From UHGV virus genome UHGV-0319381: a stretch of 7,118 nucleotides of DNA; one strand, given 5' to 3'. The DNA is from a virus. The notes beneath the pieces were generated by a model, which was not told the DNA's origin, did not search any database, and saw only the letters and a list, made by a program, of their open reading frames with translations. Position 1 is the stretch's first letter. Each line of letters begins with the position of its first letter. The position numbers and the translations under genes are program-made. This document shows positions 247 to 7,118 of this stretch, piece by piece.

Positions 247-371
247 TAAAGAGGGGGTAAAACGTGAGCAGAGCAATGAACAAACTGAGCGATACCTTGC
301 TAAGGAAACTTCATGGTAAGCCAGCGGAGAAAAACACGTTTTATAGTGATGGCGGAAACCTGAGCGTGAAA
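247..371. repeat. Right arm of the perfect inverted repeat (int RBS plus first 36 codons)
   Basis: Exact reverse complement of 1-125. Confidence 0.9.
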
Positions 372-1493
372 TATTTAACATCAGGGAAATTGACCTGGTA
401 TTTCACATACAGGGCCGGAACGGGAAGGGAGACACGACCCGAACGCATTAAGCTGGGAAGTTATCCTGATCTGAGCCTGAAAGCAGCCAGGGAAAAAGCC
501 GCACAGTGTCGCACATGGCTGGCTGAGGGGAAAAATCCACGTCATGAGATGAATTACACCGTACAGGAAGCGTTAAAGCCCGTAACGGTTGGCGATGCGC
601 TCACCTACTGGCTTGAGTCTTACGTAAAGGAAAACCGCGTGGATTATATCGCCCTGAAAAGGCGACTTAATAATCACGTAATACAGCAGATTGGTGCTAT
701 GCCGCTGGATAAATGCGAGCTACGGCACTGGCTGGCCTGTTTTGACCAGGTGGCAAAGCGAACGCCTGTTACTGCCGGATTCGTGCTACAGGCGTGCAAA
801 CAGGCGCTTAAGTTCTGCCGTAGGCGGCGCTATGCAATCAGCAACGTTCTGGACGATCTGAACGTGGCGGACGTTGGGAAAAAACCGGATATAAGCGAAC
901 GTGTCTTAAGTAACAAAGAACTTGGCGAATTATTGCAGGCACTGGACAAAAAAATATTTTCCCCTTACTACGTCGCGTTAATCCGCCTCCTGATTGTCTT
1001 CGGAGCCAGGACGGTAGAACTGAGGCTATCGGAGATCGGGGAGTGGGATTTTACGGAAATGCTATGGACCGTTCCGAAGGAGCACAGCAAAACGAAGGTC
1101 GCAATATTCCGGCCCATACCGGAAGCGATCCTGCCGTTCGTCACGCAGCTGGTGGAGCAGAACAGGCACACGGGCTTATTGCTGGGGGAAGTGAAACAGG
1201 AGGCCAGCGTATCGCAGTATGGAAGATTAGCGCACAGGAGGCTTAATCATCCTCACTGGTCACTGCATGACATCCGGCGCACCTTTACAACCATGCTGAA
1301 CGATTTAGGCGTTGATCCGCATGTCGTGGAGCAGCTTACAGGTCATCAGATGCCAGGAATGCAGCGAGTTTATAATCATTCCCGTTATCTGGATGCTAAA
1401 CGCAATGCGCTGGATATGTGGATGGAGCGGTTAGGGATACTGGCGGGAACACATGAAAACGTAACCACGCTACCAGTAGCCAGAAGAAAATAA
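264..1493 (+). CDS. int: Site-specific tyrosine integrase, P4-type (409 aa)
   Basis: GTG start with GAGGGGG RBS 6 nt upstream. The N-terminus (KLSDT...GGNLSVKYLTSGKLTWYFTYR) aligns by eye with the N-terminal arm-binding region of CP4-57 IntA-like integrases. C-terminal tyrosine-recombinase signatures are present: ARTVELR, HDIRRTF, and Tyr in VYNHSRYLD. Confidence 0.9.
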   Translation: MSRAMNKLSDTLLRKLHGKPAEKNTFYSDGGNLSVKYLTSGKLTWYFTYRAGTGRETRPERIKLGSYPDLSLKAAREKAAQCRTWLAEGKNPRHEMNYTVQEALKPVTVGDALTYWLESYVKENRVDYIALKRRLNNHVIQQIGAMPLDKCELRHWLACFDQVAKRTPVTAGFVLQACKQALKFCRRRRYAISNVLDDLNVADVGKKPDISERVLSNKELGELLQALDKKIFSPYYVALIRLLIVFGARTVELRLSEIGEWDFTEMLWTVPKEHSKTKVAIFRPIPEAILPFVTQLVEQNRHTGLLLGEVKQEASVSQYGRLAHRRLNHPHWSLHDIRRTFTTMLNDLGVDPHVVEQLTGHQMPGMQRVYNHSRYLDAKRNALDMWMERLGILAGTHENVTTLPVARRK

Positions 1494-1867: not shown

Positions 1868-2056
1868 GTGTTAAGCACTGATCGGTTTATACGTGAAAAA
1901 GAATGCGAAAAGCTAACAGGCCTTAGCCGCTCATGCCGCTACCGCCTGGAAAAGGCCGGACAATTCCCATCACGTCGTAAACTTGGCGGTCGTTCCGTTG
2001 GCTGGTCTTTATCCGAGGTTCTGGCCTGGAAGGATAGCTGCAAGGCAGTTCATTAA
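1868..2056 (+). CDS. alpA: AlpA-family transcriptional regulator / excisionase-like DNA-binding protein (62 aa)
   Basis: GTG start with GGGGG RBS 5 nt upstream. The sequence (LTGLSRSCRYRLEKAGQFPSRRKLGGRSVGWSLSEVLAWK) matches the AlpA pattern (TG..R...Y......FP....LG..SVGW...E...W) and sits directly downstream of int, as in P4-like and PICI elements. Confidence 0.85.
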   Translation: MLSTDRFIREKECEKLTGLSRSCRYRLEKAGQFPSRRKLGGRSVGWSLSEVLAWKDSCKAVH

Positions 2057-2202
2057 TCACGCTGGCGGCACACAGCCGCCACACATCAATCATCTGAACA
2101 CAGAGCTATAACCATGAAGATTGAATATACGCCAGAACGTGGGCGGGGATTCGTTCGCCCTGGTGAGACTGGAAAACCACAAAATTGGGGTTTTTCAGGC
2201 AT

Positions 2203-2230
2203 AAAAAAAGCGGCCCCGAAATGGAGCCGC
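2203..2230 (-). terminator. Probable intrinsic terminator for the minus-strand RHH/57-aa cassette (possibly bidirectional)
   Basis: Stem GCGGC (2210-2214) pairs with GCCGC (2226-2230); on the minus strand it is followed by a T7 run (complement of A-run 2203-2209). It lies about 95 bp past the minus-strand stop at 2326. Confidence 0.4.
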
Positions 2231-2325
2231 CTTTCTGAACAGATAACACGCTGCGCCGTTTGTGTGTGTGATCCCAAACATAAGCACGGGGATGATAGCC
2301 GCTATCAGGCTGGTGGGCAATGCAA

Positions 2326-2499
2326 TCAGTCTGGTTCAGTTCGTTGCCATACCTGCAATGAGCGCTTTTCCCTGTACTCTTTAAGGAATTGCTCAAGGGC
2401 AAAAGCACATGGCGCGAATCTTTCTGATTCATGCTCTATCTTTCTGCGCCGTCTTTTCCGTGCCGGTGATAATGTTTTGGTCAATTCTTTATCGGTCAT
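2326..2499 (-). CDS. Hypothetical small basic protein (57 aa, MTDKELTKTLSPARKRRRRKIEHESERF...)
   Basis: ATG at 2499 with AGGA 7 nt upstream; same strand as and 57 bp downstream of the RHH gene; followed by the terminator-like hairpin. An alternative start at 2514 gives 62 aa. No family recognised. Confidence 0.3.
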   Translation of the reverse strand: MTDKELTKTLSPARKRRRRKIEHESERFAPCAFALEQFLKEYREKRSLQVWQRTEPD

Positions 2500-2556
2500 T
2501 GTGTTGTCCTGCATAGCAATGCGCCGTAATACCTCACACCACGGCGCTGATAGTGA

Positions 2557-2862
2557 TTATTCTGATTCTTTGGCCTTGCGGCGCTGTAGTTCTTCACGAG
2601 CGATGGCGATAAGTTGCCCGAGTTCTTCCGTAGCTTTAATACCAATTTTTTCCACTTGCGCCAATGCATCGAGAGAAGAAATCAGAGGATTTTCACTGCT
2701 TCCTTCTGCCTGGCGGCGGGCGATCTCCCCGCGCATGGCGGTTACTATGAATCCGGCGTTGCTTTCGCCGTCCAGTTTTACGGATTCCATGCCATCAAAA
2801 GCATCATGTGGGATACGAATTGAAATCTGTTTTGATTTGTCGTTGATAGTGTTTTTTGCCAT
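2557..2862 (-). CDS. Arc/Mnt-like ribbon-helix-helix DNA-binding protein, candidate repressor (101 aa)
   Basis: ATG at 2862 with AGGAGA RBS 6 nt upstream (complement of 2869-2874). The N-terminus KQISIRIPHDAFDGMESVKLDGESNAGFIVTAMRGEI fits the RHH pattern of a beta-strand with R-x-P followed by two helices. It is divergent from the rightward operon, with operators between them. Confidence 0.55.
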   Translation of the reverse strand: MAKNTINDKSKQISIRIPHDAFDGMESVKLDGESNAGFIVTAMRGEIARRQAEGSSENPLISSLDALAQVEKIGIKATEELGQLIAIAREELQRRKAKESE

Positions 2863-2884
2863 GTGCATTCTCCTAAACAAAAGA

Positions 2885-2960
2885 TGTGATTCAGTATACA
2901 CAAAAAAGAATCACAAAAAACACTTGACCTGTGATTCAGTTGAATTTAATTTAAATCACA
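2885..2960. promoter_or_regulatory. Divergent promoter/operator region: two copies of a palindromic operator TGTGATTCAGT-N-(G/A)AATCACA flanking a TTGACC -35 box
   Basis: Operator 1: TGTGATTC 2885-2892 with GAATCACA 2908-2915. Operator 2: TGTGATTC 2930-2937 with AAATCACA 2953-2960. The two are 45 bp apart. TTGACC at 2924-2929, then 17 bp to TAATTT at 2947-2952, so operator 2 overlaps the putative rightward promoter. Confidence 0.45.
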
Positions 2961-3049
2961 CCTCAGTAAGAGGATGTAAACGACAACGCCCCGAACTGTT
3001 TGCGGCAGTAGCGGGGCGTCTAACCAAACCGTTAACAGGAGTAACGATT

Positions 3050-3247
3050 ATGGCTGGAACACAGCATACCCCACGTCTGGCGCACACACAAACTGCCTTT
3101 GTGTGGCGTTTTCTGGCACTAAGTGCCGGAGAATCTCAAATCATCCACGTAACCGCCTGGACGGAACGCGAAGCGCGTAGCCGTTGCCCGTCCGGTTGTG
3201 TTGCTGTATTCGCCGCCCGTATTCGTCAGGGGTCACATCATGCGTAA
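3050..3247 (+). CDS. Small protein paralog A (65 aa) with FVWRF...TEREAR...ARIRQG..HA motifs; possibly the Icd-like/Ash-like small-protein family of P4-like elements (name uncertain)
   Basis: ATG at 3050 with ACAGGAG RBS and 8-nt spacer. Paralogous to 3534-3704. It is the only part of the long 2114-3247 ORF that looks coding. Confidence 0.55.
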   Translation: MAGTQHTPRLAHTQTAFVWRFLALSAGESQIIHVTAWTEREARSRCPSGCVAVFAARIRQGSHHA

Positions 3248-3533
3248 AAACCGCTTGCAAAAAATTATCACGGGGCTGTATGCTTCCCCCGTCGCCCACA
3301 TGGCGACCGGGTTTGACAGCCTGAATACTACAGCGGACAGCCGCTTACATTCCGATATGCGGTTTTTTTGTGTCCGTAAACCTACCCATACCCGCATTAT
3401 GGCGGGGCGTAACGGGGGAGCCTTTGCGCTCGCTGGTTCCTGTAGTGCCAGTCTGTCAACCCTGTTACGTCTCGCCACCATGTTTGACAGCGTAGTAGCG
3501 AGACTCCTTAATTTCACTACAGGAGCCTTTCAC

Positions 3534-3704
3534 ATGGCTGTATTCGCACGCCCTTATTTTGTCTGGCGCTTTATGCAGTGCCTGACAGACAGCATTGCAA
3601 TATTCACCGTTACCGCTGCCACTGAGCGCGAAGCACGTGCACAGCTGCCGCACGCACATCTGATTTTTGTCGCCCGTATTCGTCAGGGGGTGTGCCATGC
3701 CTGA
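3534..3704 (+). CDS. Small protein paralog B (56 aa) with the same FVWRF...TEREAR...FVARIRQG..HA motifs
   Basis: ATG at 3534 with identical ACAGGAG RBS and 8-nt spacer; shares a 19-bp identical stretch (GCCCGTATTCGTCAGGGG) with paralog A. A possible TTGACA-N17-CTTAAT promoter lies at 3484-3512. An alternative in-frame start at 3240 (154 aa) is not excluded. Confidence 0.55.
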   Translation: MAVFARPYFVWRFMQCLTDSIAIFTVTAATEREARAQLPHAHLIFVARIRQGVCHA

Positions 3705-4023: not shown

Positions 4024-4323
4024 ATGAGAGCGTATTTATCTGGCTTTACTGCCAGCGGTTATGCACACCCCAAAATTATCCCCGGCGCTATTTATCTGGA
4101 TAAGAACGGTAACAGAGTAACGGTAAAAGAACTGATGTTTGACCGTGTGTATTTTATTCGTGATGGCTATTCATTTCATAGTTCGCTGAACGTGGAGATC
4201 TTTATTAGCAGATTCCGGCGGGAAATCCCGCTTTCCAGAAATAACCATGTGTCATGTATGGATGTTGATAAAAAACTACAGGAACTGAAAAACATGATTG
4301 CCGCGTGGAGAGAGCAGAAATGA
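4024..4323 (+). CDS. Hypothetical protein (99 aa) immediately upstream of, and translationally coupled to, the alpha-like gene
   Basis: ATG at 4024 with GGGGA RBS about 9 nt upstream; its TGA stop overlaps the ATG of the next gene (ATGA at 4320-4323). Confidence 0.5.
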   Translation: MRAYLSGFTASGYAHPKIIPGAIYLDKNGNRVTVKELMFDRVYFIRDGYSFHSSLNVEIFISRFRREIPLSRNNHVSCMDVDKKLQELKNMIAAWREQK

Positions 4324-6137
4324 AAAAAGCGCCAAATTTAAAACACCAGCCGCGTGACAAAATGACGGAAGTCATCATTTTTGCGGGTAGTGATGCGTGG
4401 GCACATGCGAAGCAGTGGCAGGAACAGGACGGGCGACTGGCTGGCGATAACGTGCCACCTGTCTGGCTTGGAGAGCAACAACTTGCCGAACTGGACAACC
4501 TGCAAATCGTACCGGACGGACGCTATCGCGTGCGTCTCTACCAGGCGGGGTTATTGCGTCCGGGGCTTGTTAATACCATCGGGCAGAAACTGGCAGCGGC
4601 AGGTGTCAGGGATGCTGATTATTACCCTGAAGGAATGCACAGCCAGAAACGGGAGAACTGGCGCGAATATCTGGAACGTGAGCGGGGAGAGCTGGCGGAA
4701 AAGAAAAAGGTAGTTGAACTGCCTGTAAAGAAAAAAGAGCGGGTAAAAGACGATAACGCTTCATCACTGGCGCTTAACCAGATGGGAGCAAGTCAACGCG
4801 GCGAAGTTCTCCTGGCACATTATGGCGGTGAACTGGCGATTCATGCTGACTCTGACACTGTTCACTATTACAACGGCGTTGTATGGGAGCCAGTACAGGA
4901 TAAAGAATTACAGCGAGCTATGGCGCAGATTTTCATTGATGCGGAGATCAGCTATTCGCAGAACGCCATTAAATCGGCGGTCGATACCATGAAGTTAAGT
5001 TTGCCTGTAATGGGGAATACAGCCCGTAACCTGATTGGATTCAGTAACGGTGTTTTTGATACCCGGACAGGCGATTTTCGGGAGCATAACAAAAACGACT
5101 GGTTGTTAATTGCCAGTGAATTACCTTTCAGCCCACCAGCAGAGGGGGAAACGCTGGCAACACATGCGCCGAATTTCTGGAAGTGGTTACGCCGTTCGGT
5201 GGCTGAGAATGACCGCAAGGCGGATCGCGTACTGGCTGCATTATTCATGGTGCTGGCGAACCGGTACGACTGGCAGTTATTCATTGAGGTAACAGGTCCA
5301 GGGGGAAGTGGTAAAAGCGTGATGGCGGAGATTTGCACCATGCTGGCGGGTAAGGCCAACACGGTATCGGCAAGCATGAAGGCGCTGGAAGATGCCAGGG
5401 AACGCGCGTTAGTGGTTGGCTTTTCGCTGATTATCATGCCGGATATGACCCGTTACGCTGGTGATGGCGCAGGAATTAAGGCCATTACAGGCGGTGACAA
5501 GGTGGCAATCGACCCGAAGCATAAAGCCCCCTACTCAACACGCATTCAGGCGGTAGTGTTGGCGGTGAACAATAACGCCATGTCATTCAGTGACCGCAGC
5601 GGGGGGATTTCACGTCGTCGGGTGATATTCAATTTTTCGGAGGTTGTACCGGAAAACGAACGCGACCCCATGCTGGCAGAAAAAATAGAAGGAGAGCTGG
5701 CGGTTGTGATTCGCCACCTGCTTACTCGTTTTTCTGACCAGGACGCAGCTAAACGCCTGCTGTATGAGCAGCAGAAATCAGAAGAAGCTCTGGTGATAAA
5801 ACGCGAGGGCGATTCGCTGGTGGACTTCTGCGGCTATCTCATGTCGTCGGTAATGTGTGATGGTCTGTTAGTGGGTAATGCCGAAATTATTCCGTTCAGT
5901 CCGCGCAGGTATCTTTATCACGCCTATCTGGCATATATGAGGGCACACGGATTCGGTAAACCTGTAACACTGACGCGCTTCGGTAAAGATATGCCGGGGG
6001 CAATGGCGGAATATGGCAGGGAGTATATGAAACGGAAAACGAAGCACGGTTTGCGTTCAAACGTGACACTGACGGAGGAATCAGAAGACTGGATGCCATC
6101 ATGTGTATCGGTCACTAATGACGACAGCAAAAATTAA
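4320..6137 (+). CDS. P4 alpha-like replication protein: SF3-type helicase / phage-plasmid primase P4-family C-terminal region (605 aa)
   Basis: ATG at 4320 with GGAG RBS; an alternative GTG at 4305 gives 610 aa. Walker A VTGPGGSGKS at about residues 325-333 and Walker B-like hydrophobic-D (LIIMPD). A long C-terminal region is followed immediately by TGTTCACC iterons. The N-terminal roughly 300 aa carry no primase signature I can recognise by eye. Confidence 0.8.
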   Translation: MKKAPNLKHQPRDKMTEVIIFAGSDAWAHAKQWQEQDGRLAGDNVPPVWLGEQQLAELDNLQIVPDGRYRVRLYQAGLLRPGLVNTIGQKLAAAGVRDADYYPEGMHSQKRENWREYLERERGELAEKKKVVELPVKKKERVKDDNASSLALNQMGASQRGEVLLAHYGGELAIHADSDTVHYYNGVVWEPVQDKELQRAMAQIFIDAEISYSQNAIKSAVDTMKLSLPVMGNTARNLIGFSNGVFDTRTGDFREHNKNDWLLIASELPFSPPAEGETLATHAPNFWKWLRRSVAENDRKADRVLAALFMVLANRYDWQLFIEVTGPGGSGKSVMAEICTMLAGKANTVSASMKALEDARERALVVGFSLIIMPDMTRYAGDGAGIKAITGGDKVAIDPKHKAPYSTRIQAVVLAVNNNAMSFSDRSGGISRRRVIFNFSEVVPENERDPMLAEKIEGELAVVIRHLLTRFSDQDAAKRLLYEQQKSEEALVIKREGDSLVDFCGYLMSSVMCDGLLVGNAEIIPFSPRRYLYHAYLAYMRAHGFGKPVTLTRFGKDMPGAMAEYGREYMKRKTKHGLRSNVTLTEESEDWMPSCVSVTNDDSKN

Positions 6138-6151
6138 ACTTATGGAATAAC

Positions 6152-6378
6152 TGTTCACCACTGTTCACCCTGTTATAAATATCTTTTATATCAGTATATT
6201 ATATGGTGAACAGTTATTTGTGAACTGTTCACCAAACTATTCACTGTTCACCTTTTTGATTATTTATTGAGCTTTAAGGGTGAACAGTGGTGAACAGTTG
6301 GTGAATAGTTTTTGTGAAACTGTTCACCCCTTAACATTATGAATAAAAAGGGAAAATCTCAAAAGGTGAACAGGTGAA
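6152..6378. repeat. Iteron array, putative origin of replication (crr/ori-like): about 11 copies of TGTTCACC in both orientations around an AT-rich core
   Basis: Forward TGTTCACC at 6152, 6162, 6226, 6245, 6321. Reverse GGTGAACA at 6205, 6279, 6289, 6365, with degenerate copies at 6300 and 6373. Several copies sit at 10-11 bp phasing. AT-rich stretch at 6171-6204. Confidence 0.75.
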
Positions 6379-6670: not shown

Positions 6671-7118
6671 CAGCACAGATAGCGGCTTACGGGCGGCTGG
6701 TGGCTGACCCGCAGTTAAAGACCACCAGCAAAGGGACACAAATGGCGATGGCGAGTATGGCGGTTCCCCTGCCGTGCAGCCAGGCAGATGACGGAACGGC
6801 GACGATGTGGTTATCTGTCCTGGCGTTTGGCAGACAGGCCGACGCACTGGCAAAACACCACAAAGGCGAACTGGTGAGCGTGGCGGGTAACATGCAGGTG
6901 AGCCAGTGGACAGGCCAGAACGGGGAAACGCGGCAGGGCTGGCAGGTTATTGCAGACAGCGTAATCAGTTGCTTAAAACGGTATGTTATCCCCGTACGGA
7001 TCAACATTTCCCGCCTGTTGTTTTGCCCTGTTCAGCGCGTCAGTAGCCTGGCCCTGTTGAGCTTTTTTGCCGCCCGGTCGCGCCGTTCGCGCACTGATTA
7101 CGCTGTCTGCAATAACCT
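6667..7118 (+). CDS. SSB-like OB-fold single-stranded DNA-binding protein, 3'-partial (runs off the window)
   Basis: ATG at 6667 with GGAG RBS. IAAYGRLVADPQLKTTSKGTQMAMASMAV...WLSVLAFGRQADALAKHHKGELVSVAGNMQVSQWTGQNGETRQGWQVIADSV aligns by eye with the bacterial SSB OB-fold pattern (VGRLG.DPE.R.T..G...A.F..A...W....A.G..AE.A..YL.KGS.V...G.L....W.D..G..R....V.A). No stop before the window end; the region after the OB fold is atypical (hydrophobic/basic rather than Gly-rich acidic tail). Confidence 0.55.
   Translation, partial: MTAQIAAYGRLVADPQLKTTSKGTQMAMASMAVPLPCSQADDGTATMWLSVLAFGRQADALAKHHKGELVSVAGNMQVSQWTGQNGETRQGWQVIADSVISCLKRYVIPVRINISRLLFCPVQRVSSLALLSFFAARSRRSRTDYAVCNN

Follow-up and report, generated by a model that had tools for sequence, protein, structure and literature searches.

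A ribbon-helix-helix gene and a small accessory gene as a probable leftward immunity operon of an Escherichia coli phage satellite

What is the role of two neighbouring minus-strand genes, one coding for a ribbon-helix-helix (RHH) protein and one for an arginine-rich protein of 57 residues, in a small mobile element of Escherichia coli? The two genes are found in the virus genome UHGV-0319381, of which a stretch of 7,118 nt (the window, with positions counted from its first nucleotide) was analysed. A preliminary description of this DNA reported the two genes, the gap of 57 nt between them and a run of basic residues (ARKRRRRK) in the small protein. All of these were recovered at the same positions (Table 1), the basic run being residues 13-20. 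The description also pointed out that an RHH gene followed by a small partner gene is the layout of many toxin-antitoxin (TA) or addiction modules, and it considered a nucleic-acid-binding partner, a co-repressor or a non-coding 3' region to be equally possible. Gram-negative phage-inducible chromosomal islands (PICIs) and capsid-forming PICIs (cf-PICIs) are widespread drivers of gene transfer, and from its gene content the window is assigned to an E. coli phage satellite of this type. We think it probable, with moderate confidence, that the cassette serves the satellite as its leftward maintenance (immunity) operon, consisting of an RHH repressor gene and an accessory small gene.

The product of the first gene belongs to the YlcI/YnfO family (NCBIfam NF041551; 65.7 bits against a curated cutoff of 30 bits, E 2.8e-18, residues 9-50), and the same coding sequence has been given this name by the annotation pipeline PGAP in an identical E. 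coli locus. An N-terminal beta-strand and two helices occur within about 45 residues, as in RHH (CopG/Arc/MetJ) proteins. The AlphaFold model (mean pLDDT 77) has an extended N-terminus, two helices (residues 19-28 and 35-54) and then a long one (59-100), i.e. the layout of the long form, in which an RHH domain of about 50 residues precedes a long C-terminal helix. Foldseek, a PDB sequence search and a Pfam search gave nothing significant for the RHH protein. Homologues were found across Enterobacterales, and about 30 % of the complete E. coli genomes contain the leftward RHH gene. At least 15 alleles were distinguished in about 190 related loci, which were drawn from metagenomes, IMG/VR, assemblies and complete genomes. 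The alleles include short (59 residues) and long (101 residues) YlcI-type forms, a 65-residue form and Arc-like forms of 57 residues, the latter matching Pfam Arc with an E of 0.038, below threshold. The proteins appear modular, with a hypervariable DNA-reading N-terminus, an optional 42-residue insertion that makes up the long helix at the C-terminus, and a tail of one of two interchangeable types, RRKAKExE or RGIEPKG. The DNA block common to all E. coli cassettes begins in the last ~10 codons of the YlcI-type genes with the RRKAKExE tail, and at the stop codon of the Arc-like genes.

Every RHH allele has its own motif of 7-10 nt, repeated in direct or inverted orientation at distances of about 21, 66 and 91 nt from the start codon of the RHH gene. 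The framework around the motifs is conserved and made up of CAGTATAC as the leftward -10, an A-rich run, and CTTGAC as the rightward -35; at least 14 alleles have this CTTGAC with allele-specific repeats after it, which lie some 66 and 91 nt from the same start codon. Since each of the at least 15 alleles has its own repeated operator motif over both divergent promoters, the RHH protein is the most likely repressor of the island. The position of the operators over the divergent icd/replication promoter further suggests a repressor of the whole element and not merely an autoregulating antitoxin. From the allele-specific repeats at fixed positions, the protein is predicted to dimerise and to bind operator half-sites, and the anatomy of the region would be that of an immunity repressor controlling both itself and the divergent icd/C4/replication operon. 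Where the allele-specific operator DNA ends, the leader of the first icd-like gene contains a conserved hairpin (ACGCCCCG...CGGGGCGT, 2986-3019), the pairing of which, judged by eye, is kept with changed bases in other alleles (CCCCG/CGGGG compared to CCCGG/CCGGG).

A repressor operon in a mobile element is of a known kind. The features of interest here are the 57-residue protein, an orphan of no described family, and an open frame that bridges the cassette on the opposite strand. Like Arc and Mnt in the immI region of P22 and other RHH repressors, the present protein is small and encoded beside divergent promoters, with short repeated or palindromic operators over the -10 and -35 and a specificity varying between alleles, some of which are Arc-like. 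It differs from them in belonging to the YlcI/YnfO family (related to DUF3950, with no described function), in the 42-residue C-terminal helix of its long form and in its satellite host, and its DNA binding is predicted. The leftward repressor gene diverging from the replication and packaging genes of a satellite is also seen with Stl of the pathogenicity islands (SaPIs) of Staphylococcus aureus and Rpr of Gram-positive PICIs. However, Stl and Rpr are helix-turn-helix proteins, and nothing in the present results points to de-repression by a helper protein. Gram-negative PICIs have been described as unidirectionally transcribed, AlpA-controlled and without a clear global repressor (PMC6092414). 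A later survey gives only proteins of the Bro network and immunity RNAs for this zone, and a survey of 2026 enters a 'YlcI/YnfO family protein' merely as cargo. Among the papers listed by a search of the searchable literature on phage-inducible chromosomal islands together with ribbon-helix-helix repressors, none contained the term ribbon-helix-helix. With its immunity-like alleles, at least 15 in number, and an operator motif to match each of them, the leftward RHH gene is a directly testable candidate for the missing repressor.

The RHH gene and the small gene appear to be transcribed together, in line with the two-gene cassette of the preliminary description. The small gene starts 57 nt after the RHH stop codon in essentially all loci, whatever the type of RHH protein, and a hairpin followed by a T-run lies 90-230 nt past its stop in nearly all of them, in at least four unrelated sequences. 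Constant spacing together with terminators of unrelated sequence after the small gene argues for an operon. The terminator of the window, already proposed in the preliminary description, is 96 nt past the small gene and folds with -21.7 kcal/mol (z = -4.0), none of 200 shuffled sequences folding as well; it was not listed by a consensus terminator scan. No promoter-like site was evident on inspection of the spacer. The spacer hairpin folds with about -17 to -19 kcal/mol in 30 spacer variants and has neither a U-run nor convincing compensatory changes.

In the mechanism that we propose, a promoter inside operator 1 would drive expression of the YlcI/YnfO-family protein, a repressor of the dimer-of-dimers type that would bind the allele-specific repeats over its own promoter and over the rightward promoter of the icd-like, C4 RNA, DUF4222 and primase genes. 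Repression would keep the island quiescent, as suggested by the anatomy and by the co-variation of alleles and operators. The leftward transcript would run through the hairpin spacer into the small gene and end at the intrinsic terminator. The small protein would be an add-on that is made with the repressor and is independent of its allele and should, for this reason, act in trans on a constant target. This target may be a nucleic acid, to which the basic tail would bind, or else a protein of the host, the helper or the island, contacted through the amphipathic helix of the predicted structure.

The small gene needed more support, because a 57-codon reading frame is not by itself beyond chance in a window containing 77 open reading frames (ORFs) of at least 30 codons; the case for it is comparative. 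The automatic call gave 62 residues (2326-2514), starting at ATG 2514. This codon is often TTTAC in relatives, whereas ATG 2499 is kept, and a Shine-Dalgarno-like motif, CAGG(A/G/C/T), is conserved 8-11 nt 5' of ATG 2499, which agrees with the ribosome binding site considered plausible before. The 57-residue reading is therefore taken as correct. The preliminary description had suggested conservation and selection across relatives as a check. In codons 1-43, the sense frame had the lowest ratio of nonsynonymous to synonymous polymorphism (pN/pS) of all six frames, 0.28 (0.21 in the core), compared to 0.42 in the antisense frame sharing wobble positions and 0.9-1.6 in the remaining four. When more divergent copies were added, the sense frame gave 0.38 and the wobble-sharing antisense frame 0.54. 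The alignment of homologues has a basic N-terminus, an invariant core, in-frame indels of two codons and several alternative C-termini, and start codon, spacing and core are all maintained in divergent copies, which are 48-70 % identical at the DNA or protein level. These comparisons indicate that the ORF is a genuine coding gene, and the idea of a non-coding 3' region can be abandoned.

Some observations weigh against this reading of the cassette. The two promoters are weak consensus matches that were not picked up by a promoter scan (below threshold). Protein motifs were used to retrieve most of the related loci, a procedure biased towards intact ORFs, and the sequence pairs behind the pN/pS values are phylogenetically non-independent. 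As pN/pS is also below 1 in the wobble-sharing antisense frame, the opposite strand could supply part of the constraint. Stops or frameshifts, which the preliminary description had named as the sign of a spurious ORF, do occur in a few copies (a stop at codon 51 in L162; frameshift or truncation in P0036, P0041 and P0034). Finally, the role of the small protein is deduced by exclusion only.

The small protein has a narrow distribution. All 36 protein clusters of its homologues come from E. coli or Shigella, and a profile (hidden Markov model) search of 1.84 billion representative proteins gave only nine matches, all in E. coli, so that few sequences were gained by it. One GTDB species representative (Shigella flexneri) carries the gene, and it is absent from a phage collection of 50,697 genomes. 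A DNA search with the core of the gene gave 1823 places, spread over 1503 of the 5426 complete E. coli genomes (~28 %), the best match being at least 99 % identical in 826 of the 1503, while the spacer with the RHH tail was found at 2024 places. From these two counts, about nine in ten E. coli cassettes have the small gene, which is among the commonest unannotated or misannotated small genes of E. coli islands; PGAP often places a plus-strand 'Icd-like pseudogene' instead of it. The only family matched was phrog_21027, to which the protein belongs (E 1.6e-15, residues 6-50 of the 62-residue ORF, i.e. 1-45 of the 57-residue protein) and which has no annotated function. As stated before, no toxin family is recognisable: Pfam, NCBIfam, PADLOC and PDB sequences gave no match. 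In the AlphaFold (AF2) model (mean pLDDT 73) residues 1-23 are disordered and a single amphipathic helix spans 29-54.

We consider it fairly probable that the small protein is a trans-acting accessory regulator or a factor expressed in lysogeny, with a constant target; RNA-binding variants are included in this estimate. A nucleic-acid-binding partner or a co-repressor, as mentioned in the preliminary description, is possible. The cI-rexA-rexB operon of lambda would offer a parallel, as there too an optional extra gene, independent of immunity specificity, is co-transcribed 3' of a maintenance repressor gene. Unlike rexA and rexB, the small gene has no known exclusion phenotype, and its product has no similarity to the Rex proteins in sequence or structure.

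In one frame, the opposite strand of the cassette is open from end to end. The bridging ORF (Table 1) is in frame with the alpA stop codon TAA (2054-2056) and with the first icd-like gene (3050-3247), and it shares wobble positions with both minus-strand genes. From the alpA TAA to the icd-like stop this frame contains no stop, whereas the other two plus-strand frames contain 20 and 25 over the same ~1 kb. Its median open length in 156 related loci was 360 codons, with 99 % of the loci reaching 150 codons or more, compared to medians of 21 and 43 codons for the other antisense frames. None of the 15 representatives of the RHH alleles has a stop in it; synonymous shuffling gave a probability of 0.12-1.0 for this in each allele, with a product near 1e-6, a value that overstates independence. 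The non-coding operator region (its first 120 nt, in 19 sequence-distinct representatives) behaves similarly: the 14 representatives seen in at least two loci all lack stops in the bridging frame, and the eight stops found occur in four of the five singleton variants, at least three of these four variants differing in homopolymer length. In the remaining two frames, stops number 65 and 57 over all 19 representatives.

The distance from the RHH ATG to the icd ATG also follows the frame. In most alleles it is 130, 187, 190, 193, 196, 199, 205, 211, 499, 544, 547, 565 or 781 nt, each of these values being 1 mod 3, and in the alleles with out-of-frame spacing (194 or 197 nt) the bridging ORF stops 22-28 nt short of the icd ATG. 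The frame spans the RHH gene also in Klebsiella and Yersinia, where it extends from the end of the upstream excisionase gene or antA to 14-18 nt before the first rightward gene. The openness of the frame is conserved over alleles and three genera far beyond chance, while its translation is unconserved and resembles antisense junk. The starts vary between variants, some having a strong Shine-Dalgarno sequence (AAGGGGAG), and PGAP labels parts of the ORF as 'Icd-like pseudogene' or hypothetical protein. The frame is open also in L002, L004, L182, L185 and about 150 other loci.

AlpA has been reported to activate its own promoter and the downstream ORF3 (PMC6092414), which makes it plausible that AlpA-dependent rightward transcripts are translated across the repressor operon up to icd. 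Such translation could protect the transcripts from Rho and oppose expression of the repressor. In its boldest form, the RHH cassette would be an unrecognised master repressor of Gram-negative PICIs, crossed by a selected bridging ORF from alpA (in some islands bro/ant) to the icd operon, translation of which at induction would shield the transcript from Rho polarity, while convergent transcription and antisense RNA would silence the repressor, and the small protein would be a recently born regulator of this collision zone. We regard this combination as speculative and rather unlikely. If the bridging ORF is translated, selection would here act, unusually, on the act of translating across a repressor operon.

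Other explanations concern the small protein. It could be an RNA-binding regulator with an arginine-rich motif, N-like or translational, the tail of which would bind its own leader or the icd-leader hairpin at 2986-3019 and alter termination, stability or translation of island transcripts. Like lambda N and HK022 Nun it has an N-terminal arginine-rich disordered segment and an RNA hairpin in its own leader, here 14 nt 5' of the Shine-Dalgarno-like motif; a second conserved hairpin is present in the rightward leader of all alleles, and RNA-based immunity (C4 RNA and its targets) is encoded nearby. However, the protein is half the size of N and Nun, resembles them in composition only and has no regions for binding NusA or RNA polymerase. 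Apart from the arginine-rich tail, the hallmarks of a lambda N-type antiterminator (a boxB hairpin, a boxA, and the NusA and RNA polymerase regions) were not found: the spacer hairpin has no boxB-like GNRA loop (the loop is of 5-7 nt and unrelated sequence) and no boxA occurs in the right order or upstream. The homologue P0040 has its arginine run at the C-terminus instead of the N-terminus, and expression is predicted with the repressor and not from an early lytic operon. The spacer hairpin shows no covariation and persists in the E. coli locus L189, which is without the small gene; as a boxB-like or autoregulatory site specific to the small gene it was rejected on these grounds. An RNA-binding regulator of this kind is, in our estimate, improbable.

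The TA reading, in which the RHH protein would be an autoregulating antitoxin and the basic protein a new toxin stabilising the island, does not find support and is considered very improbable. As in ParD/ParE, CcdA/CcdB and TacA/TacT, the RHH gene comes first and a small partner gene second on what is probably one transcript. Among compact structural matches to the RHH domain, the best were the antitoxins Rv0298, TacA, MazE6 and PrpA, the RHH protein has a weak Pfam match to the Rv0623-like PSK_trans_fac, and a conserved C-terminal tail of the YlcI-type proteins adjoins the conserved small gene. Identical 57-residue proteins are nevertheless encoded behind Arc-like (20 loci) and behind short and long YlcI-type RHH genes, with both tail types, so that there is no cognate co-variation; co-evolution of the RHH tail with the small protein was ruled out by the same cross-tabulation. 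The partner is also optional. Orthologous cassettes of Klebsiella and Yersinia, recognised by an AlpA/excisionase-family gene upstream (and antA in Yersinia) and an icd-like gene downstream (and DUF4222 in Klebsiella), have the RHH gene with no ORF following it, and L189 keeps the RHH gene and the hairpin with different DNA after them. Unlike in type II TA modules, the genes do not overlap, being separated by the hairpin spacer, the operators reach a divergent operon, that of island replication, and the model of the small protein, a disordered tail with one helix, is not a toxin fold; nor was there a match in Pfam, NCBIfam or PADLOC.

Equally improbable in our view is that the small ORF is young and marginally functional or non-functional, its conservation coming from recent recombinational spread and from constraint on the plus-strand frame or on RNA structure. 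Its very narrow range, the near-identity of many copies (826 of 1503 genomes), the variable C-terminus with several replacement tails and the antisense pN/pS below 1 would all fit such an origin. On the other hand, the sense frame has the lowest pN/pS, and copies at 48-70 % identity retain the ATG, the spacing and the core. The bridging frame avoids stops without conservation of amino acids and cannot therefore explain constraint on the minus-strand protein. Moreover, the copy in a dead remnant has decayed: beside IS66 on an Escherichia albertii plasmid (L192) the RHH gene is truncated and the small ORF has a stop at codon 12. The converse view, in which only the plus-strand ORF would be a real gene, with the ORFs of the minus strand as shadows of it, was rejected because of the family match, the conserved ribosome binding site and ATG, the operator logic and the frame-specific pN/pS.

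Table 1 Features of the analysed 7,118-nt window
Feature	Position	Strand	Remarks
Tyrosine integrase	264-1493	+	
AlpA	1868-2056	+	
Bridging ORF, 377 codons	2114-3247	+	Antisense to terminator region, small ORF, spacer, RHH gene and operators
Intrinsic terminator, GC-rich hairpin and U7	2203-2230	-	Faces the 3' end of alpA
Gene for 57-residue protein (phrog_21027)	2326-2499	-	Arg/Lys-rich disordered N-terminus (SPARKRRRRK), core ERFAPCAFALExFLKEY, variable C-terminus
Spacer, 57 nt	2500-2556	-	Hairpin 2521-2547 (GCGCCGTGG...CTACGGCGC), then CAGGA Shine-Dalgarno-like motif
RHH gene, YlcI/YnfO family, long form	2557-2862	-	101 residues; AGGAG 7 nt before ATG
Operator 1, TGTGATTC-N15-GAATCACA	2885-2915	.	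Repeat search
Putative leftward promoter, likely -10 TATACT	2898-2893	-	Inside operator 1; by inspection
Putative rightward promoter, TTGACC 2924-2929, 17 nt, TAATTT 2947-2952	2924-2965		By inspection
Operator 2, TGTGATT-N17-AATCACA	2930-2960	.	Overlaps rightward promoter; repeat search
Two Icd-like ORFs	3050-3247 and 3240-3704	+	Bracket C4-family antisense RNA and target
a1b1-type target of C4 RNA	3278-3327	+	Rfam
C4-family antisense RNA	3395-3482	+	Rfam, 72 bits
DUF4222	4024-4323	+	
D5/primase-helicase	4305-6137	+	
Iterons	6136-6350		

The assignment of the window to a satellite is based on the gene order expected for PICIs, i.e. int and alpA followed by a primase/replication module with an iteron origin and no lysis or tail genes, to which cf-PICIs add capsid and packaging genes. 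Int and alpA are here followed by a replication module consisting of a D5-type primase, DUF4222 and iterons, and the window ends short of any packaging genes. The iterons (AACTGTTCACC) form a dense array in both orientations directly 3' of the primase gene and presumably constitute the replication origin of the island. Positions 2100-3050 match E. coli NMBU-W12E19 at 100 %. In that strain the island is inserted in tqsA and has capsid, protease, portal and connector genes further along, and it is thus a cf-PICI. The replication module is mosaic, the window having a D5_N/Pox_D5 primase and NMBU-W12E19 a DUF927 protein (L001 11221-13344). The cassette is also present in islands of O157:H7 adjoining roxA/pepT (the position of EcCIEDL933), which are ~98 % identical to positions 2100-2563. 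EcCICFT073 was sought at guessed coordinates in NC_004431, where the stretch proved to be a lambdoid prophage and was uninformative. Each end of the window repeats a nearby internal stretch perfectly in inverted orientation (1-125 and 247-371, 125 nt; 6944-6969 and 7093-7118, 26 nt; both 100 % complementary), which looks like a fold-back assembly artefact, not biology.

Six records deposited as plasmids carry the small gene, and two of these were inspected. One is the decayed remnant of E. albertii described above. The other (L193, NZ_CP148328.1), a circle of 10,790 bp deposited as a non-mobilizable plasmid, holds int, AlpA, the YlcI/YnfO cassette, Icd-like, DUF4222 and primase genes and a protease-capsid fusion, i.e. 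a complete small island, and is probably an excised satellite.

The rightward operon resembles the RNA immunity systems of P1 immI (c4-icd-ant) and P4 (CI RNA) in having a C4-family antisense RNA, a1b1-type targets and icd-like genes. The likeness concerns only this neighbouring operon, and in the present island a protein repressor sits upstream of the RNA layer. A sub-threshold Rfam match to isrK was seen near the C4 RNA (3278-3491), and a second target-like repeat (3474-3491, equal to 3303-3320) lies just 5' of ATG 3534. The RNA features and this repeat suggest that the 154-residue 'Icd-like' ORF at 3240-3704 is over-extended across the RNA gene, and the real second icd-like coding sequence is likely to start near 3534.

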